Shown: positions 5,986 through 40,974 of the stretch, piece by piece
Layout: each line of letters begins with the position of its first letter
Numbering within the stretch: position 1 is the first letter of the stretch
IMG/VR virus record: IMGVR_UViG_3300045988_153358
Direction: 5' to 3' (one strand)
DNA length: 48,302 nt
Origin: a virus
Taxonomy: Duplodnaviria > Heunggongvirae > Uroviricota > Caudoviricetes
Translations under genes and position numbers: made by a program
Notes under the pieces: generated by a model
Seen by the model: the letters and a program-made list of their open reading frames with translations, nothing else
The model's database searches: none
Told to the model about the DNA's origin: nothing

Positions 5986-6609
5986 ATGACAAAACATCTT
6001 AATGTGGTTTCTTTACCACTTTCTGTGTTGATTGGTTATGAAAAGAACGCTCGCACACACTCCGTGGAGCAGGTAGATCAGATTGTTGCCAGCATACAGG
6101 AGTACGGATGGACTAATCCGATCCTGATAGACGAGAACAACGTTGTAATTGCTGGTCATGGTCGAATTGCTGCGGCCACTCAGTTGGGGATGGATGATGT
6201 TCCCTGCATTGTTCTGGCTGGGCTAACGGAGAATCAGAAGAAGGCATATCGTCTGGCCGACAACCGTATTCCGCTGAATGCTGGTTGGGATGAAGAGTTG
6301 TTAAGCGCGGAGCTTGCAGATCTTGCGGCCGATGATTTTGCTCTGGACTCAATTGGTTTTACTCAGCGCGAACTGGATAACTTATTGAGTGCGGCGGTCT
6401 ACGATGACACAGAGGGTATGGATATCCCATTTGAGAAGGATGAGGCCAAATCAGGCGTAAAAGTTCAGTACCTGTCATTTGGAGGTCATAAAATCCCGGC
6501 AACGGATGAGGAAGCGGATCGTTTTGACTGCGCGGTGTCTCGTTATGTTGATGATAATGGCAGCTATATCGGATTTGTATCCGCATTGCTGGCTGGGGAG
6601 GTGTGCTGA
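5986..6609 (+). CDS. ParB-like nuclease domain protein (copy 1)
   Basis: ParB N-terminal domain motifs (IAGHGR, KKAYRLADN); paralog of 9275-9865. Confidence 0.75.
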   Translation: MTKHLNVVSLPLSVLIGYEKNARTHSVEQVDQIVASIQEYGWTNPILIDENNVVIAGHGRIAAATQLGMDDVPCIVLAGLTENQKKAYRLADNRIPLNAGWDEELLSAELADLAADDFALDSIGFTQRELDNLLSAAVYDDTEGMDIPFEKDEAKSGVKVQYLSFGGHKIPATDEEADRFDCAVSRYVDDNGSYIGFVSALLAGEVC

Positions 6610-7982
6610 TGCTTCACCTGAATTACGACATAACGCACCTACGCGGCGCGGAATATAACCCGCGTTTTATCGGTGAGGATGATCTTGCGAGGCTGGCGGA
6701 AAGCGTCAGGGAGCTGGGGCTTGTGAAGCCATTGATAGTGCGCGGCGATTTGCTGGTGGCGGGACACCAAAGGACGAAGGCGCTACGTAAGTTGGGAATA
6801 ACGCGTGCTGCGGTGTATGTGTTGCCCTGTGAAACGACGGTATACGACGAAGTACGGTTTAACCAACTGCATAACGGAACGGATTTTGATAGCGGAGATG
6901 AGCGTTGCAGGGTGTCCGGTCTGGAAGATAAGCATGGTTTTGTTCAGGTATCGGCAAGCCAGATCTCAGGCAATATGCGCGCGAAAATGGCATATGTTCG
7001 AAAGAACATAGCGGAACTGGTTATCAAGTATGGTCCGTGGGGTGGTTGTGTTGCTACTCAGTCTGGTGAGGTTATTCACTGTGCTCAGTATGCATTAGCA
7101 GCGAAAATGACGCGCACACCGCTAACGGTGTTTGTGATCCCTGATGTTGAGAAGGAAAAATACCAAAGTTATCTGAATAAAACTTATGGTGTATTTGAGT
7201 ATTCTCATCTGGAGAAAACAACATACATCCAGACGTATGCGCAGCTTATGCGGTTGCGTAATGGTGGCAGCCTGAAATCAAACCTGTATGAGTCGTTGAT
7301 CCTCCCGATCATTGCCAAGACGCCAAGAGGAATTGATTTTGGTTCGGGGCAGGGAGACTACGCGCGAATGCTCAGGGCAAAGGGATATAACCTGCATGAT
7401 CTCGAGCTTTTCCGCCGTAAGGGCGCTGGAAACACTCTGGATAGGACCGCAACAAACCGGATGATTGATACGCTGGTGGACGACTTAAAAACGCGAGGGC
7501 GTTACGACTACGTGATTTGCGATAGCGTTTTGAACTCGGTCGATAGTGTCGAGGCTGAATGGTCTGTTCTGACGGTTCTGAAAGGCCTGTGTAAAGCTGG
7601 TGGGTCAATATTCTTTTCTGGTCGTAGCCGTGGAGAGCTGGAAACAGTCCTGAAGCAAACACAAGCGGCGAGTTCCAAAAGCCGGCTTTATTTTATTGAT
7701 CATAACGGTTTTACCGCGTTGTACCGGAAGGGGCACTGGTTTTACCAGAAGTTTCACTCTGATGATGAAGTGAAGCAGTTGTGTCGTGTACATGGTTTCA
7801 GGATTAAGCGGTCAATATTCAACTGTAAGAGCTGGTATTTGCACGTCATTAACGATGATTCCCTTAGTTGGGCGAGTCTGGAGAAAGCTGTTCGTTTTGA
7901 GTTTGAGTTGCCGTTGCCTGGTGGTTCAACAATCGGACGATCTGATGATGTGCTGGCGGCTTTCCGGCCGCTGATTAAGTAG
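6609..7982 (+). CDS. ParB-like N-terminal domain fused to a class I SAM-dependent methyltransferase-like domain
   Basis: N-terminal LVAGHQR ParB-like motif; downstream DFGSGQG, DYVICDSVL and LCKAGGSIFFS resemble methyltransferase motifs I-III; no DPPY/NPPY motif. Confidence 0.6.
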   Translation: MLHLNYDITHLRGAEYNPRFIGEDDLARLAESVRELGLVKPLIVRGDLLVAGHQRTKALRKLGITRAAVYVLPCETTVYDEVRFNQLHNGTDFDSGDERCRVSGLEDKHGFVQVSASQISGNMRAKMAYVRKNIAELVIKYGPWGGCVATQSGEVIHCAQYALAAKMTRTPLTVFVIPDVEKEKYQSYLNKTYGVFEYSHLEKTTYIQTYAQLMRLRNGGSLKSNLYESLILPIIAKTPRGIDFGSGQGDYARMLRAKGYNLHDLELFRRKGAGNTLDRTATNRMIDTLVDDLKTRGRYDYVICDSVLNSVDSVEAEWSVLTVLKGLCKAGGSIFFSGRSRGELETVLKQTQAASSKSRLYFIDHNGFTALYRKGHWFYQKFHSDDEVKQLCRVHGFRIKRSIFNCKSWYLHVINDDSLSWASLEKAVRFEFELPLPGGSTIGRSDDVLAAFRPLIK

Positions 7983-7998: not shown

Positions 7999-8718
7999 GT
8001 GGCTGACAGAATTGAGATAAAGATGGATTTTTCTTCTCAGGATATTCAACGGCAACTCCAGCGCATTGAAGAACGCGAATTGCCGTTCGCAATGGCGCTT
8101 ACAGCAACCAGAACGGCAAAGGCTTCTCAGGCTGCGATTAAGGATGAAATTAATCGGGTATTTGACAGGCCCACGCCGTGGATTCAGAACTCTACTTACG
8201 TTTTAGCCGCAAAGAAGAGTGATCCTACAGCCATTGTGTATGCTCGTGAATGGGGTGGAACGCCAGCCCCTGTAACGTTGACTCCGCAAATCGAAGGCGG
8301 CCAACGACAGTACAAACGCTCAGAAGGGGCGCTAAGGGCTGGTGGATATTTGCCTAACGGCTGGCAGCTTGCTCCTGGTCCCGGCGCAAAGCTGGACAAA
8401 TACGGGAATATTTCGCGGGGGCAATTACAGCAGGTCTTATCTGGCCTAAGAGTTCAGCGAGATGCGCATCAAAATCGCCGTCAGGGCAAGCCTACGGAGT
8501 TTTTTGTTGTTCGACCTGGTACAAGTAACCCGCTTCAACCAGGCGTCTGGCAGCGCGTTGGGCGGCGTCCTACGTTGATCCTTACGTTCATCCAGCAACC
8601 TAACTATTCGCAGCGTCTTGATTGGCATGGCGTGGCGCTGCGTGCTGGTGAGGATGCGTTTGCTGATGAAGTCACAAAGGCTATTGATGACATCCTTTCT
8701 AAGACGTTCTCTCGTTAA
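7999..8718 (+). CDS. hypothetical protein (239 aa), GTG start
   Basis: ORF track; TAGGAGG Shine-Dalgarno. Confidence 0.55.
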   Translation: MADRIEIKMDFSSQDIQRQLQRIEERELPFAMALTATRTAKASQAAIKDEINRVFDRPTPWIQNSTYVLAAKKSDPTAIVYAREWGGTPAPVTLTPQIEGGQRQYKRSEGALRAGGYLPNGWQLAPGPGAKLDKYGNISRGQLQQVLSGLRVQRDAHQNRRQGKPTEFFVVRPGTSNPLQPGVWQRVGRRPTLILTFIQQPNYSQRLDWHGVALRAGEDAFADEVTKAIDDILSKTFSR

Positions 8719-9274
8719 TCATCGTGTGGTTGATGGTGTTGTTATGCAGGGTGTATTCACTGTGTTCTGTAGCGTCGCTCGCTGGCTGTCTGTGGGGGAG
8801 CACGAGCATCGTTTCATCGTCCGGCAGAATTGGGTCCTTCTGGCCAAAAGCGTTGGATGCGGGTCATTCGAACCCCGATATTCGGCTAGCTAAACGTGAA
8901 AAAAGTTAGGTTAAAAGTTGCGGTAAAAGAAATTTACTCATCTCATTGAAAAATATCGGGAAAACGTGATTTTTTCTGTATTTGTGCTGGTAAAAAGAAA
9001 GTGGAAAATTTTCTTTTAGATCATCAAGATACGCGCAGATCTTTAACCAATGTGATGTTGTTCTGATAAAAATCGTTATAAATCATGCAAATACATCCAA
9101 TCTTTTAACCAAAACACCATCGCAAGATCCTTTTTACTTATAAAAACTTAATAAAATCAGATAATTATGCTGGTTTGTGTGATTTTTCATGAGTAAAAAG
9201 ATCGTCATTTTTCTCTTTTAGTATCAATAAGTTAAACAGTTTTCTTTAACCTGTTGTGTTATGGCGGTTAAAAA

Positions 9275-9865
9275 ATGGCTCTAAAAATCGAATATTTACC
9301 AGTCGGTAAGTTGCTCAGATATGCCAAAAATTCACGGACTCATTCAGATGAGCAAGTTGAACAGTTGGTGAACAGTATCCGTGAGTTCGGTTTCACTAAT
9401 CCTGTGCTGATCGATGAAAAGAATGAACTGATTGCGGGGCATGGGCGGCTTGCAGCAGCCGAAATTCTGGAAATGGATAAAGTTCCGGCGATTCGGTTGA
9501 GTAACCTTTCTGAAAAACAGAAGAAGGCTTACAGGATTGCAGATAACAAGCTGGCTTTAAATGCTGGCTGGGATATGCAGCTTCTGGCCGAAGAAGTCAA
9601 AGAGTTAATGGATGATGATTTTGATATTGATCTGCTTGGGTTTAATGATGCAGAGCTTGACGAAATGTTAAGCGATGAACAGCCGCAGGAAGAAGACGAT
9701 AATTCTTCCCCTGTTGTTCAAATTAAGTACCTGGCTATTGATAAAGAACGTATTCCCGCGACGGATATGGAAATTGCATTGTTGCTGGATGTTTATCGTC
9801 AGTACCACGACGCGCATGAAACGCATGAGGGATTTGTTCAGTATCTTGCTAATGGTTGCAAGTAA
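9275..9865 (+). CDS. ParB-like nuclease domain protein (copy 2)
   Basis: same motif layout as 5986-6609 (NSRTHS, IAGHGR, KKAYRIADN, LNAGWD). Confidence 0.75.
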   Translation: MALKIEYLPVGKLLRYAKNSRTHSDEQVEQLVNSIREFGFTNPVLIDEKNELIAGHGRLAAAEILEMDKVPAIRLSNLSEKQKKAYRIADNKLALNAGWDMQLLAEEVKELMDDDFDIDLLGFNDAELDEMLSDEQPQEEDDNSSPVVQIKYLAIDKERIPATDMEIALLLDVYRQYHDAHETHEGFVQYLANGCK

Positions 9866-10416
9866 TGGCCATCGTCAGTAAGTCAGAGTTTGCCCGCCGG
9901 AAAGGTATTTCTCCGGCAATGGTTACGAAGCTCTGTCGTTCCGGTCGCATTCCAGTGCTGAAAAGCGGCAAGCTGGATTTTGATAAAGCCAGTGCGGCTT
10001 ATGAAGCGAGCCGACAGGTTGGTCGTGAGGTATCTGCTGAAAATGGAAAAAGAGGGCATGGGATATCTTCGGAACAACCAGAGTTACCCGCTGATGATGC
10101 CGGATTAGCTGGTGGTACTTCCGGTGTTGCGGTGCAATTCAACAAGGCTAAGACCGCAGAAAAAATTTATCAGGCAAAGCTGAAACGCCTTGAATTTGAA
10201 GAAAAGGAAGGCTCTCTCATCGCTAAAGATGCGGTCAGGGATGATGCATTTCTGGCAGCTAATGAATTGCGTAGCCGCTTATTTAGTATTGCTCCAAGAG
10301 CAGCTCCCCGTTGTGAAGGCAAAACAGCCAGGGAGATCGAGCGCATTATTGAAGACGAGATTAATTTTGCGCTTCAGGCGCTCCAGGAATCCCGATTTAT
10401 TAAGCAGGAAGAATAA
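9865..10416 (+). CDS. terS: terminase small subunit
   Basis: N-terminal HTH-like SKSEFARRKGIS motif; directly upstream of TerL; ATG overlaps upstream stop. Confidence 0.65.
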   Translation: MAIVSKSEFARRKGISPAMVTKLCRSGRIPVLKSGKLDFDKASAAYEASRQVGREVSAENGKRGHGISSEQPELPADDAGLAGGTSGVAVQFNKAKTAEKIYQAKLKRLEFEEKEGSLIAKDAVRDDAFLAANELRSRLFSIAPRAAPRCEGKTAREIERIIEDEINFALQALQESRFIKQEE

Positions 10417-10421
10417 ACCTC

Positions 10422-12278
10422 ATGGGCGAAACAGTATGGAGCACCGCTTTTTTCCGTGCGCTTCGCCCTAAATCACGGCTAACTGTTTCCGAATGGGCTG
10501 ATAAGTATCGTCATGTAGCGCCGGGAACGTCTCCAGAGCCAGGGCCGTGGCGTACAAGCCGAGTGCCATATTTGCGTGAACCAATGGATGTTATTGGTGA
10601 CGCTGATACAGAAACAGTAGTGATGCAATGTAGCTCGCAAATTGGTAAATCCGAATTACAGCTAAATGTTATGGGTTACTTTGCAGATCAGGAGCCATCT
10701 CCTCAGTTGATGATTTATCCAACGGTAGAGGCGGCTGAGGCTTTTTCAAAAGAGCGTATTGATCCGACGTTCAAATATTCCCCTGGTTTGAAACACAAGC
10801 TGCATGAAGGGAAAGAGGGGCGCGGTGCAGCCAAAAAGTCCAGCACGACTATACGTATGAAGCATTACGCTGGTGGATATATAGCACTTGTTGGTGCTAA
10901 TTCCCCAGCAGGTCTTGCATCCAGGCCAATTCGAATACTGTTAGCTGATGAGATTGATCGTTACGGTGTGACGCAGGAGGGCGACCCACTAAAACTAGGT
11001 ATTCAGCGTACTACCAACTTTCATAATCGTAAGAAAGTTTTTGTTTCTACTCCTGTTTTGGAGGAAACAAGCAAAATCCACAAGTGGTTTAAGCTCTCCG
11101 ATCAGCGTTACTACCATGTTCCTTGCCCATGTTGTGGCACCATGCAGGTGATGAAATGGTCGCAAGTCAGATGGGATAAGAGCGATTCAGGTGAGGCGTT
11201 ACCGGAAACGGCCAGATATGAGTGCTGTGAGTGCGGCGGGATTATGCGCGGATCTGGTAAACCAGACGTTGATTGGTTGGCGAAGGGGGTATGGATAGCT
11301 GAACATACTGGAGTTAAAGGTATTGTTGGTTTTCATATTAACAGTCTTTACTCCCCGTGGGTTGCATTGTCAGAGCTGGTTGAAGAATTTACGGAAGCAA
11401 CCAGAAACCGCGATAAAAATGGATTAATGGAGTTTATTAACCTTAAGCTGGGTGAGCCATGGAAAGAGGATGCTAAAGACGATATCGATCCTGAATACTT
11501 GTTGCAACGCAGAATAAGGTTTGAAGAGTTTTTACCAGATGATGTTTTATTGTTAAGTGCTGGTGTTGACGTACAGGACACGTATTTAGTTTGTGAATTG
11601 GTCGGTTGGGGAAAAGGTAAGGAGTCATGGGGGATAGAATATAAAATATTCCCAGGTGATCCCGCACAAGATGTTGTCTGGAAACAACTTGATGAATACT
11701 TACTCCGTAGCTGGTCATTCCGTGACGGTCGAAAATTACAGATTTCTTCCGTTTGTATTGACTCTGGTGGGCATTTTACGACAGAGGTATATCGCTTTAC
11801 TAAGCCGAGAGAATCAAGGCGAATATACTCTATCAGGGGGCGTGGTGGGGTAGGTTTACCATTTATAGGAAAGCCAAGTAATAATAACCGTGTGGGTGCT
11901 ATGTTGTTTAATTTGGGGGTTGATGATGGTAAAGGGACCATCATGGCAAGAATTAAACTACATGATCCTGGTCCTGGTTATATGCATTTCCCATTAGATT
12001 CTGACAGAGGATATGATACCGAATACTTTAAAGGATTATTATCAGAGAAAAAAATATTTGAATATAAAAATGGGCAGACAAAAGAAAAGTGGGTGAAAGT
12101 CTACGAGCGTAACGAGCCTCTTGATTGCCGTAACTATGCAACTGCCGCGATGGAAATTCTGAACCCTAATTTTAACTGGCTTGCCGAACAGGAAATGCGA
12201 GGTAATGTGTATGTGCAGAACTCGTCAGGTATACGTAGAAGACGCCGTAGAGTTATAAGTAAAGGCGTAACCATATAG
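10422..12278 (+). CDS. terL: terminase large subunit, lambda GpA-like
   Basis: 618 aa; GpA-family N-terminal pattern (TVSEWADKY, PGPW, PYLREPMD); gene order. Confidence 0.85.
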   Translation: MGETVWSTAFFRALRPKSRLTVSEWADKYRHVAPGTSPEPGPWRTSRVPYLREPMDVIGDADTETVVMQCSSQIGKSELQLNVMGYFADQEPSPQLMIYPTVEAAEAFSKERIDPTFKYSPGLKHKLHEGKEGRGAAKKSSTTIRMKHYAGGYIALVGANSPAGLASRPIRILLADEIDRYGVTQEGDPLKLGIQRTTNFHNRKKVFVSTPVLEETSKIHKWFKLSDQRYYHVPCPCCGTMQVMKWSQVRWDKSDSGEALPETARYECCECGGIMRGSGKPDVDWLAKGVWIAEHTGVKGIVGFHINSLYSPWVALSELVEEFTEATRNRDKNGLMEFINLKLGEPWKEDAKDDIDPEYLLQRRIRFEEFLPDDVLLLSAGVDVQDTYLVCELVGWGKGKESWGIEYKIFPGDPAQDVVWKQLDEYLLRSWSFRDGRKLQISSVCIDSGGHFTTEVYRFTKPRESRRIYSIRGRGGVGLPFIGKPSNNNRVGAMLFNLGVDDGKGTIMARIKLHDPGPGYMHFPLDSDRGYDTEYFKGLLSEKKIFEYKNGQTKEKWVKVYERNEPLDCRNYATAAMEILNPNFNWLAEQEMRGNVYVQNSSGIRRRRRRVISKGVTI

Positions 12279-31685: not shown

Positions 31686-32155
31686 AAGATAATCATGTGA
31701 CCAATTATTGTAATAATTTTAATGGTATGTTTCTACTGGCTATCCAGCGTGTCTGATATCCAGTAACAAATCGTCAACACGGGTGCAATCAAATGGTGAG
31801 TGTTAAGACTGACCACTTATTACCAGGTATGAGTGGCCAGCATTAAATCAGAACAGCCCTTTAACTGAACTGGCCGCGCTGTTAAGGGATGATGTCACCT
31901 TATCTTTGAAGCCGGACAGCATATTGCTGAACGATGAGTTTACCGCAGGTTTCTGGCTGGGAATCATTGACTGGAGTTAGGCCAGTAGTATGATGCTCGC
32001 AAAACGAGATCCAATTTAGATCCTTTTACTGGTGGATTATCGTTCGATCAGTGAGAGACTTCGTGCATGACCGAAAGTGTTGTGGTAGAGTTCTCTTAAA
32101 ACCACGTAACGTGGTTATGATTGTGGGTGTCTGGTTGGAAAGTGACCAGATATGG

Positions 32156-32268
32156 AAACAAAAAGCCCGCAGATAAATCTGCGGGCTTCTTGCGACATCC
32201 ACGGAAAACCAACAATTAACCATGGGCGCCTCGACAACTCCCATTATACGTTGGTTTTCCGTGGACGC
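32156..32268 (-). ncRNA. candidate CopA-like antisense RNA region for repA control
   Basis: 16-bp perfect inverted repeat 32198-32213 / 32250-32265 with about 36-nt loop; 10-bp hairpin 32163-32188 followed on the minus strand by a U-run. Confidence 0.45.
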
Positions 32269-32280
32269 AAGAGCGAACAT

Positions 32281-33129
32281 ATGGATAGACCAATGCCGTC
32301 TCTACGTTCAGCTTACGTTTGTAATTTGTCGCCGGAGTTCCAGCGTCCAAAGCACCATACGCACAAGCTGCCGCTGGTGTTATCTGATGCTTTACAGCGC
32401 ATTAATGGGCGTGATCTTACGTGTGAGGTTGCGTTCTACGTTAATCAACCGTCAGAGCGGAAGCGCCGGATAAACGAGCATCGTCGTCGGGCGATTAATG
32501 CTGTGATCGCTGCGATTTTGCACCATGTAAACATCATTTCTAAGCGGGTTCTGGCTAGTGCTGAGGCGTTGGCTGATTTTTGCGGCCTGTCTACCGTATC
32601 CGAAGCTGGGAACAAGTCTATAACGCGCTGTACAAGGGCGTTGTCGCAACTGAAAGCGTTAGGTTTTATTGATTATGAACGTCGCTGGGATCGGGTGAAT
32701 AAACAGTATTGGCCAGCGAAAATAGAGATTCGTGATCAACTGCTGGAAACCGTTGGTATTACTGAACAAGCATGGAGACGTGCGGTTAGCCAGAAACTTA
32801 ATTACTTCAATGCGAAGAATAGCGAACGGCTTAAAAAAGCGATAACGGAGGCTGATTATAAGCGTATTGTTATTCAGGAGCAGATGGAGAATGTATGGCG
32901 TCAGAGGAAGACGGCCAGAGAGATAAAGGCAAAACAGAAAGCAGCGGAGAGAGCTGCGCGTCTTGTTCGGGAAAAGGGAGAGGCCGAACTTCGTCATCAA
33001 ATCACCAGAGAGGTTAGTCAGGAATTTGCTGATGGCATGTATCCTGGTGCTGACCTTGCATATTTACGATCCCTCGTTGAGCAGCGTTATAACAGGTTAA
33101 GAAAGACCTGGAAATCACTCCAACATTAA
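32281..33129 (+). CDS. repA: plasmid replication initiator RepA, IncFII RepA1-like
   Basis: central region (GLSTVSEAGNKSITRCTRALSQLKALGFIDYE) closely resembles R100/R1 RepA1; ORF extends upstream to 32152 but that stretch holds the stem-loops. Confidence 0.75.
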   Translation: MDRPMPSLRSAYVCNLSPEFQRPKHHTHKLPLVLSDALQRINGRDLTCEVAFYVNQPSERKRRINEHRRRAINAVIAAILHHVNIISKRVLASAEALADFCGLSTVSEAGNKSITRCTRALSQLKALGFIDYERRWDRVNKQYWPAKIEIRDQLLETVGITEQAWRRAVSQKLNYFNAKNSERLKKAITEADYKRIVIQEQMENVWRQRKTAREIKAKQKAAERAARLVREKGEAELRHQITREVSQEFADGMYPGADLAYLRSLVEQRYNRLRKTWKSLQH

Positions 33130-37494: not shown

Positions 37495-38694
37495 TTATGG
37501 TCTGCTCTTCTGTGCCAGCTTATCAGCACATGTTTTTATCAGATCCTGTAGTGTCCTGGCTGGCAGGTTTGCATCCAGTACGCTGAGTATGCTGTTGTGA
37601 TCTGCTTGGTCGACTACTTTGCCTGTCGGTGGTAGTAGCTTGAGCTGAGGATTCAGGTTTTCGTCAAAGCTGATAAGTGCTCTGGCGTTTCTGAGCAGAT
37701 CAAGAAGTAAGGCTGATATCACATTTTCCTGAGTCATTGCTGACAGATTTAGCGCCGCTTTGGTTTTCCCTGTTGCCTTGTCAAACTCCTTGATTAGTTC
37801 CTTCCTGTAGTTCGGTTCCGTTAATAGCCGATTATGCTCTGTTGCCGCGCGGATAATCGTTTTTTCCTGGTACAGTCGTTTAGCCAGATCACGCTCGTAC
37901 TGTGTTTTTAACACGCTGCTGATAGCGTTAAAGGCTTCAATGTAGGCCAGCTTGATATCTTTCACGCCTGGACCGTCGATACTTTCCATGAGCAAGGTAA
38001 ATCCGTCTTTTGTCATGCGATAGATTGTTATTTCGCGGTCGCTTCCTTCCAGCGGTCGTTGCTCTTTAAAGAAATGACGTGCCGCAGCTGTGCGAGGAAT
38101 GCGTAACGCATCGATGGCCATAACGATGGAATTGTTTGTGGTGCTGAATGCCTGGGCAACATCGGCTGAGGTTGTGAGTGGCTCGTTGTTGCACACCTTA
38201 ATGTAAAACATCGGTTTGGCGTTGAGCGTATCGACAACCTCACGAGCATTGTTTGGCGAGACGGTTACGGTCGCGGCCGTTTGTGTGTTCTGGCTGAAAT
38301 AGCAGTCTTCCAGCCGTTCGAACACATCCCAAGCCTGATCGGTTTCAAGCATTTTGGCGTGACGTGCAGCCCCGCGTTCTGTCCAGAGAATGAGGGAGCG
38401 GGCTTTCGGGGAAATTTGTAACCCTCTTAAAGATGGTTGCACATTTTGTGAGTTACTTAAAGTAACCCGCAAATTTTGTGAGTGACTTAAAGTCACTCGC
38501 AAAGTTTTTAACTCATCGCCAGCCACTTTGAAAAAATGCTTTCCTTCAATAAAGCGGTTTGCGTTACGTGAGTAATTTTTTTTGATGTTATCAACGTCTG
38601 TGCCGTATAGCTTTGCCAGTAGTTCAGTAGTGATAACGGGGATCTGGTTATGCAGGATAGGCTGTAGGGTGTTAACGGTCGGAAGCGTTTTCAT
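37495..38694 (-). CDS. antirepressor-like protein (ORF6N/KilA-type N-terminus, Rha-like C-terminal part)
   Basis: ITTELLAKLYGTDVDNIKKNYSRNANRF motif; downstream of a small overlapping ORF and structured RNA region. Confidence 0.65.
   Translation of the reverse strand: MKTLPTVNTLQPILHNQIPVITTELLAKLYGTDVDNIKKNYSRNANRFIEGKHFFKVAGDELKTLRVTLSHSQNLRVTLSNSQNVQPSLRGLQISPKARSLILWTERGAARHAKMLETDQAWDVFERLEDCYFSQNTQTAATVTVSPNNAREVVDTLNAKPMFYIKVCNNEPLTTSADVAQAFSTTNNSIVMAIDALRIPRTAAARHFFKEQRPLEGSDREITIYRMTKDGFTLLMESIDGPGVKDIKLAYIEAFNAISSVLKTQYERDLAKRLYQEKTIIRAATEHNRLLTEPNYRKELIKEFDKATGKTKAALNLSAMTQENVISALLLDLLRNARALISFDENLNPQLKLLPPTGKVVDQADHNSILSVLDANLPARTLQDLIKTCADKLAQKSRP
38443..38502. repeat. two tandem 30-bp dyad-symmetric repeats inside the antirepressor gene
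   Basis: ATTTTGTGAGTTACTTAAAGTAACCCGCAA then ATTTTGTGAGTGACTTAAAGTCACTCGCAA; arms GTTAC/GTAAC versus GTGAC/GTCAC. Confidence 0.8.
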
Positions 38695-40302: not shown

Positions 40303-40956
40303 TTACGCGGCAGTAGTCAGAGCCTCAAGCTGGTTGATAATCCCCTGAATAACGTCGTCTGCCTTTTTGCGTGGCGCAACGTATGAGCATTCAATGAGGC
40401 TTAAGCCCTTATCCTGAGCTTTGCTCAGAGCTGGCTTGTGGGGAATGTACTTATCGACAACAAAGTATGGCGTATTAGCCAGGTACTCTTGGGCTTCAAT
40501 GTAGTCGGCTTCGTTTTCAGCCGCGCCTGAGAACACCATGCAAATTTTCTTGATTGGCACACCCTTTTTAACGATGCCGTGAGCTGTGTTAACGGTGGTT
40601 TCTAGGTCATCGGTAGAGAATCTGGTTGGCAAAATAACCATATCCAGAAATTCAGAGAGCTTCGGTACTGATTCAGATGCGTAGGCACCGCCATCGACGA
40701 TAACCAGGTCGTATACTTCTGATTCGATGATTTTCTGGACTTGTGATGGCGTGCCGCACGGCTGCGCCGCGATTGCAGGTTCGATATTGTTGGCCATTCT
40801 GCGTTGTACCCAACGCGTTACCGTTCCGTTAAGCACATCCATATCGATCAGGCATACATTCCAGCCGGCCTTTGCATAAGCAACTGCTAAAGCACGGGCA
40901 ATTGTTGATTTGGTTACGCCGCCTTTTCCGTTGAAAATACCTACAGAGATAGTCAT
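40303..40956 (-). CDS. parA: ParA/MinD-type partition ATPase
   Basis: deviant Walker A GIFNGKGGVTKST; start at second ATG chosen because of GGAG Shine-Dalgarno. Confidence 0.8.
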   Translation of the reverse strand: MTISVGIFNGKGGVTKSTIARALAVAYAKAGWNVCLIDMDVLNGTVTRWVQRRMANNIEPAIAAQPCGTPSQVQKIIESEVYDLVIVDGGAYASESVPKLSEFLDMVILPTRFSTDDLETTVNTAHGIVKKGVPIKKICMVFSGAAENEADYIEAQEYLANTPYFVVDKYIPHKPALSKAQDKGLSLIECSYVAPRKKADDVIQGIINQLEALTTAA

Positions 40957-40974
40957 TTGTCGAGACTCCATGTG

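Follow-up and report, generated by a model that had tools for sequence, protein, structure and literature searches.

Within the window, a 48,302-nucleotide stretch of viral DNA (IMG/VR record IMGVR_UViG_3300045988_153358), an intergenic gap at positions 8719 to 9274 separates the stop codon of a 239-amino-acid gene (7999 to 8718) from the ATG of a gene for a ParB_N-domain protein (9275 to 9865). To the right of the gap lie, in order, this ParB-like gene (plus strand; 196 amino acids with a ParB/Srx N-terminal domain; Pfam ParB_N, phrog_620), the small terminase subunit gene terS (9865 to 10416, plus strand; phrog_57, E 1.4e-41), the large terminase subunit gene terL (10422 to 12278, plus strand), and genes for a lambda-family portal and a ClpP-like protease. 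The TerL product belongs to the lambda gpA family (Pfam GpA_ATPase, E 7e-76; GpA_nuclease, E 1e-84), so that the terminase type expected beside a lambda-type cos site is found next to the gap. TerS carries an N-terminal helix-turn-helix (HTH) segment; it has no BLASTP similarity to lambda Nu1 and is 26% identical to TerS of Serratia phage vB_SspM_BZS1 (E 1e-10). In the ParB-like protein, only residues 5 to 91 match solved ParB/Noc structures; beyond about residue 91 there was no structure match, and the canonical ParB HTH region was not detected. Altogether three ParB_N-domain genes flank the gap (5986 to 6609, 6603 to 7982, and 9275 to 9865). Two of them are short paralogues assigned to phrog_620, and the third carries a fused methyltransferase domain (phrog_5475). 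They might act in DNA modification, anti-defence, or packaging. The 239-amino-acid protein immediately upstream matches phrog_1924, "minor tail protein" (E 1e-96), with no Pfam match. This label looks doubtful, and in the packaged genome proposed below the gene and the tail module lie at opposite ends.

The gap falls into two parts of different composition. Its left part (8719 to 8889) has 54% GC, whereas its right part (8890 to 9274) has 29% GC and is the lowest-GC 385-nucleotide stretch in the window (44.5% GC overall). A sequence-only reading had described the entire gap as AT-rich and noncoding, with long A/T runs and short direct repeats. This description holds, with the AT-rich DNA located in the right part. 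The runs are real (11 runs of A or T of at least 5 nucleotides in the AT-rich part), as are the repeats, although these had been quoted inexactly: "GATCTTTTTA" is absent, and the actual sequences are GATCTTTAACC (9038) and GATCCTTTTTAC (9126). The noncoding claim stands. The only open reading frames in the gap (8724 to 8909 and 8618 to 8893) are rejected as genes because indels of 34, 14, and 16 nucleotides in relatives break the frame, and the flanking genes end at 8718 and start at 9275. Among the listed Escherichia coli replicons the gap carries no annotated gene save one "hypothetical protein." An Rfam scan of 8400 to 9500 at a permissive threshold returned no matches, and a tRNA scan found none within the gap, though GGGTCATTCGAACCCC resembles a T-arm. 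The AT-rich part also contains four GATC (Dam) sites, at 9019, 9038, 9126, and 9200; those at 9126 and 9200 are kept across lineages and adjoin repeat copies.

A search of 5,426 complete E. coli genomes found matches to the gap, at 96 to 99.8% identity, in 72; in all but one of these (71) the match lies on a plasmid of 47 to 50 kb, including the ATCC 25922 plasmid and pECO-b75. The gene content of the latter, which is collinear with the window, includes genes for RepA and ParA, lysis genes, and genes for a myovirus tail. Judged from these plasmid matches and this collinearity, the element is a ~48-kb myovirus-type phage-plasmid and the window a circularly permuted copy of it, with repA at about 32152 to 33129 and ParA at roughly 40303 to 40971. 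Phages of this kind also include vB_YpM_39, vB_YpM_41, and vB_YpM_44 of Yersinia pestis and vB_EcoM-613R2 of E. coli. The group is distinct from the SSU5/pSLy3, P1, and N15 groups: assignment to pSLy3/SSU5 was ruled out, since those elements are SSU5-related, and vB_YpM_HQ103 was set aside as an unrelated 32-kb peduovirus. No cos site annotation for the group was found in the public records examined or the papers searched, and a literature search on the overhang sequence described below and on the Yersinia phages returned nothing relevant. Elsewhere in the window, a tRNA at 2853 to 2928, between the lysis genes and an MT-A70 methyltransferase gene, is called a CAT-anticodon tRNA-Met by ARAGORN, and its pECO-b75 homologue a tRNA-Ile by PGAP; the tRNA-Ile (CAT) is presumably lysidine-modified. 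A 399-amino-acid open reading frame at 37495 to 38694 (minus strand) is intact in the window, and its counterpart in pECO-b75 is split and marked as a pseudogene; an integrase was considered here and rejected, as the frame corresponds to the pECO-b75 region encoding a Rha-family regulator and an ORF6N domain.

The position of the genome ends comes from phage records that are nearly identical to this element. The records of vB_YpM_41 and vB_YpM_39 begin with GGTCATTCGAAC|CCCGAT (window position 8862) and end with GGATGCG (8861), whereas that of vB_YpM_44 begins with CCCGAT (8874) and ends with GCGGGTCATTCGAAC (8873). All three are virion derived and 96 to 99% identical to the region, and their two break points are exactly 12 nucleotides apart, as expected from assemblies of end-repaired DNA with 12-nucleotide cohesive ends; we therefore take GGTCATTCGAAC (8862 to 8873, plus strand) as the cohesive-end sequence. 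The three Yersinia records (OR545053 to OR545055; L001 and L003 to L007 in our set) are labelled circular, have every coding sequence named "hypothetical protein," and carry no cos feature, and their start coordinates coincide with the two proposed nicks.

Ends at the homologous base were also found in more distant relatives. IMG/VR contig L033, whose TerL is 58% identical to that of the window, opens with the tail of an Illumina adapter (GCTCTTCCGATCT) joined without a gap to GGTAGGCGCGGC|CCCGATTTCGTCCTAGCT. A pattern scan recovered four further contigs that open with an adapter remnant and GGT-N8-C|CCCGA, giving five adapter-capped left ends (L033/L076, L075, L079, L067, and L159), each with CTAG after this pattern. 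All five encode TerL homologues (28 to 65% identity) 0.6 to 0.9 kb downstream (4.9 kb in L159). Three other contigs (L208, L209, and L213) have right ends consisting of GGT-N8-C and adapter sequence AGATCGGAAGAGC, with GGGTCCTT (L208 and L209) or AGGTACTT (L213) about 28 nucleotides upstream. In metagenomes, a loose adapter-junction pattern gave mostly chance internal matches, and matches at contig termini alone were kept. Public viral and metagenomic contigs retain such adapter remnants at their termini exactly at the cohesive ends. Because the 12 nucleotides are present on both the left and the right ends of relatives, the overhang there is most likely 5′, filled in during library preparation, and a 5′ overhang is predicted for this element. 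Taken together, the records of the 96 to 99% identical genomes and the adapter-capped ends of relatives indirectly indicate the fixed ends and 12-nucleotide stagger of a lambda-type cos, and the genome is most likely cut at 8862 to 8873 to give 12-base sticky ends, with the top strand nicked at 8861/8862 and the bottom strand at 8873/8874.

Conservation around the proposed cut was assessed in 22 relatives by aligning the 2 kb that precede terL; most of these sequences come from one lineage. The spacer following the 239-amino-acid gene (8719 to 8821) lies outside the conserved element, with indels of 34, 14, 16, and 28 nucleotides and low identity in relatives. To the right of this indel-rich stretch (8722 to 8821 in the alignment), 8822 to 9274 is conserved like the flanking genes and peaks at 8842 to 8941, a measure dominated by one lineage. 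Majority-base agreement in the AT-rich part was 82 to 96% per 20-nucleotide bin, on a par with that of the flanking genes, again mostly within one lineage. A conserved segment of normal GC content (8830 to 8891) contains both proposed nicks, and the core GGGTCATTCGAACCCCG is invariant in relatives except for one substitution in L026. In relatives with 56 to 61% TerL identity, the overhang differs in its center only (GGTCGGACGAAC), with the flanks CG|GGTC and GAAC|CCCGA retained. Between cosN and the first repeat, a conserved spacer of the form CCCGA-N7-CTAGCT (8874 to 8897, plus strand) occupies the position of lambda I2; CCCGA and CTAG persist in BZS1 and in relatives whose TerL identity is as low as about 35%.

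The block GGGTCCTT (8830 to 8837, plus strand) starts 30 nucleotides upstream of the proposed top-strand nick. When the two sequences are aligned on the nick, lambda has the same 8 nucleotides at the same offset (48473 to 48480). The GGGTCCT heptamer within it (8830 to 8836 here) is cosQ in lambda, an element that Wieczorek and Feiss reportedly described in 2001. Both the sequence and the offset of about 30 nucleotides of a lambda-type cosQ are thus found here, and on the lambda model this block is a putative packaging termination signal. High conservation has been described for the 7-bp cosQ as well as the CG flank (PMC4669245). The block also occurs in the E. coli, L012, and L023 lineages, in BZS1 (31 nucleotides from the end), and at the right ends of L208 and L209. 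Lambda, BZS1, and this lineage all carry GGGTCCT with little or no change in offset, although the TerL of this lineage shares only 28% identity with lambda-like TerLs. This pattern suggests far stronger conservation of the termination signal than of cosN or cosB.

To the right of the spacer, the AT-rich part carries an array of a recurring unit, GGTWAAAAG/CTTTTWACC. Six copies were counted at one mismatch or fewer, compared to 0.43 in local dinucleotide shuffles (0 of 2,000 reached 6), a contrast to be read in light of the motif having been chosen after seeing the data. Degenerate copies are present too, for a total of 6 to 9 copies over about 385 bp. Counted from the first overhang base, four of the six copies are forward (+48, +128, +331, and +405) and two are inverted (+241 and +269). 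The proximal repeats (8898 to 8929, plus strand) include the invariant AAAAGTTAGGTTAAAAG, conserved in all four lineages, with GGTTAAAAG at 8909 to 8917 (bp 48 to 56) and a degenerate copy, GGTAAAAG, at 8922 to 8929 (plus strand). A further forward copy, GGTAAAAAG (8989 to 8997; bp 128), has equivalents at +130 in L012 and +131 in L026. The distal set of motif matches, which spans 9040 to 9251, consists of inverted copies on the minus strand (TCTTTAACC at 9040 to 9048 and again at 9243 to 9251, CTTTTAACC at 9102 to 9110, and CTTTTTACT at 9130 to 9138) and an oppositely oriented one on the plus strand (AGTAAAAAG at 9192 to 9200). In lambda and N15, R3 occupies bp 48 to 65 (PMC9026076). The arrangement expected of cosB, with a first repeat at about bp 48 to 65, is matched here by GGTTAAAAG at bp 48 to 56 and by copies in both orientations.

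The layout of the array is retained across lineages even when the motif changes. In L012, copies are found at +48, +62, and +130 (forward), +181, +271, and +318 (inverted), and +333 (forward). In L026, whose TerL is 77% identical to that of the window, the layout is unchanged and is built from 11 copies of a different 10-mer, GGTTAACAAA: +49, +63, and +131 forward, then eight inverted copies (TTTGTTAACC) from +183 to +529, for an array of about 540 bp. The offsets of its first four copies match. The same layout with a changed motif points to sites co-evolving with a DNA-binding protein. The three lineages sharing the motif have one and the same TerS HTH segment, from which that of L026 differs; however, the ParB-like protein has also diverged in L026, so this covariation fails to single out TerS. 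Scanning a genome collection with the ParB-like protein did not help in deciding, since it recovered only distant alpha-, beta-, and gammaproteobacterial homologues, all without this cos. Relatives without the ParB-like gene (L033 and BZS1) have proximal repeats (GGTAAC, at +44 to +74), which makes TerS, with its HTH segment, the most economical candidate; it probably binds the GGTWAAAAG repeats.

Two further properties of the AT-rich DNA bear on how a protein might engage it. AA/TT dinucleotides recur with a period of 10.5 bp across 8890 to 9274, the whole cosB-like region (power 2.15, compared to 0.22 in shuffles; reached by 0 of 1,000), and such phased A/T tracts suggest curved DNA suited to wrapping around a protein. 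Searching for IHF sites and terminase-binding repeats, as the sequence-only reading had recommended, yielded the array above and a single exact match to the IHF consensus WATCAANNNNTTR, at 9222 to 9234 (TATCAATAAGTTA, plus strand), which is kept in L023 and L026 and has one mismatch in L012. Between the first two repeats (bp 56 to 128), where a lambda-type site would have its IHF sequence, there was no match to WATCAANNNNTTR even with one mismatch.

Compared to lambda, the site shares a gpA-family TerL, a 12-nucleotide stagger with a probable 5′ overhang, a CG left flank, GGGTCCT(T) 30 nucleotides before the nick, a first repeat at the R3 place, repeats in both orientations, a cos immediately upstream of the terminase genes, and the lambda-family portal and ClpP-type protease. 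It differs in its overhang, which matches that of lambda at 3 of 12 positions, and in its right flank (CC here, CG in lambda). The array is also larger (about 385 bp and 6 to 9 copies, compared to 120 bp and three R sites in lambda cosB), a ParB/Srx-domain gene lies between cosB and terS, TerS has no detectable similarity to Nu1, IHF consensus is missing between the first repeats, and the host element is a myovirus-type phage-plasmid. With 3 of 12 overhang positions matching, GGTCATTCGAAC falls outside the "Lambda-like cohesive end" group of PMC4669245 (lambda, 21, phi80, N15, and gifsy-1). The sequence-only reading had suggested that the gap could hold a cos or pac site and had recognized no lambda-like cosN. 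Our data support a cos site, with the cut in the GC-normal segment at 8830 to 8891 rather than in AT-rich DNA. The second statement needs correcting, because the architecture is lambda type (GGGTCCT(T) offset, stagger, left flank, and R3-positioned repeat) and only the overhang sequence differs; this low overhang identity explains why cosN was missed.

A relative with characterized ends is BZS1, for which a 12-nucleotide 5′ overhang, GCATTGCGCGCC, was predicted by PhageTerm and a single 12-bp cos was confirmed by comparing phage-end sequences with a prophage PCR product (PMC7556043). Its TerL and TerS are 37.5% and 26% identical to those of the window. The overhang is of the same length at the homologous place, preceded by GGGTCCTTCC 31 nucleotides before the end and followed by CTAGCT at +24 to +30 and GGTAAC repeats at about +46 to +70. 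Unlike the element studied here, BZS1 has a different overhang sequence, only 62 nucleotides from overhang to terS, and no ParB-like gene, and it is an integrating prophage rather than a plasmid. N15, like the element studied here, is a phage-plasmid packaged from a lambda-type cos, with a gpA-family TerL 27.5% identical to that of the window (PMC4669245). However, N15 is a siphovirus with a linear plasmid form, its cohesive ends hardly differ from those of lambda, and its simple cosB comprises essentially a single R3 site; the cosB-like region here is the opposite extreme.

Read from these sequence comparisons, the layout (cosQ-like block at 8830 to 8836, cosN overhang at 8862 to 8873, and cosB-like array at about 8898 to 9274) is that of a lambda-type cos, a known type of site with, in this case, an unusually long cosB-like array. 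We put the probability at roughly 80% that a ~48-kb phage-plasmid has its cos site in this gap, functioning as in lambda with TerS on the repeats, TerL nicking cosN, rightward packaging, and a cosQ-like stop. During lytic growth, TerS, the candidate repeat binder, would most likely occupy the GGTWAAAAG repeats, which lie rightward of the cut in AT-rich DNA with probable intrinsic curvature. Bound TerS would position the gpA-type TerL, the candidate nickase, on cosN, and nicking of the top strand at 8861/8862 and the bottom strand at 8873/8874 would leave 12-nucleotide 5′ cohesive ends, GGTCATTCGAAC. Packaging would run rightwards, taking in the ParB-like gene, terS, and terL first, and would stop at the next cos, with the GGGTCCT block 30 nucleotides upstream of the nick as the termination signal. 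Since the array far exceeds the 120 bp of lambda cosB, and relatives lacking the ParB-like gene have only 130 to 250 bp between cosN and terS, the distal half of the array may serve another function.

One such function would be regulatory. The distal AT-rich half (about 9000 to 9274) could be mainly a promoter or regulatory region for the ParB-like, terS, terL, and structural operon, with the repeats as operators, possibly for TerS, and cos confined to 8830 to 8930; this is compatible with the cos explanation for the left part, and we regard it as possible, if on the unlikely side. The short cosN-to-terS interval in relatives without the ParB-like gene suggests that the extra DNA came with that gene, the IHF-consensus site lies 40 bp upstream of the ParB-like ATG, and curved AT-rich DNA is typical upstream of promoters. 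However, a scan of 8400 to 9500 for sigma-70 promoters and intrinsic terminators found no promoter-like site (0, compared to 2.3 expected from shuffles), and the P2-type late promoter element TGT-N12-ACA is absent from the gap, so the strong structural-operon promoter suggested from sequence finds no support; a non-canonical promoter may be present. The same scan found no terminator in or just before the gap, which allows read-through from upstream, and the genes to its left and right share one strand, so that transcripts could plausibly cross the closed cos, as they do in lambda. In addition, the distal repeats share one motif with the R3-positioned proximal repeats, both in the window and in L026. 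The neighboring gene raises a different idea, which we consider improbable: that the array is a centromere-like loading site for the ParB/Srx protein, acting in plasmid partition or as an accessory terminase-specificity factor. With 6 to 11 repeats in two orientations, the arrays look like plasmid centromeres, and the ParB-like gene lies directly downstream. Long arrays are found only in lineages that carry this gene, and its product differs in L026 as well. Against this, a ParABS-type centromere would pair an HTH-containing ParB with a cognate ParA alongside, whereas only the N-terminal domain was detected in the protein, ParA lies about 31 kb away beside other small genes, and the proximal repeats (+44 to +74) persist in L033 and BZS1 without a ParB-like gene between cos and terS.

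Two other explanations fare worse. Iteron-like repeats in AT-rich DNA with four GATC sites in 385 bp would suit a replication origin, either a plasmid oriV or a lytic origin, but iteron-type origins have iterons next to a rep gene, along with DnaA boxes, and repA is about 23 kb away; of the four GATC sites only two are kept in relatives, and the first repeat sits where a cos site has its R3. We consider an origin very improbable. Headful (pac) packaging with no fixed end, in which record starts reflect assembly or submitter choices, would agree with the circular labels of the Yersinia records, for which no terminus analysis was found. This is hardly credible given break points exactly 12 nucleotides apart on invariant sequence, adapter-capped ends of relatives at the homologous base, a gpA-family TerL, and the experimentally determined ends of BZS1.

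The proposed lambda-type cos site at 8830 to 9274 locates both the packaging signal and the physical ends of the genome for a widespread but sparsely described phage-plasmid group present, as 47- to 50-kb plasmids, in 71 of 5,426 complete E. coli genomes, with relatives that infect Y. pestis as well. Knowing the cos allows correct genome orientation, prediction of co-packaging or hijacking, and the design of cosmid-like vectors. By scanning public contigs for adapter-plus-motif junctions, physical genome ends can be mapped inexpensively and with no need for reads. Three features stand out: the long, lineage-specific array, the ParB-like gene that separates cosB from terS, and GGGTCCT, which is conserved in distant gpA-type systems. 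With its lineage-specific motifs, the long array lends itself to studies of TerS-DNA specificity in a natural setting. More speculatively, and with little weight on our part, the array could be more than a long cosB, namely a centromere-like platform from which the ParB/Srx protein, possibly a CTP-dependent clamp, hands DNA to TerS/TerL or switches between plasmid maintenance and packaging; if true, such a platform would add to cos recognition a new accessory layer that is particular to this phage-plasmid group.
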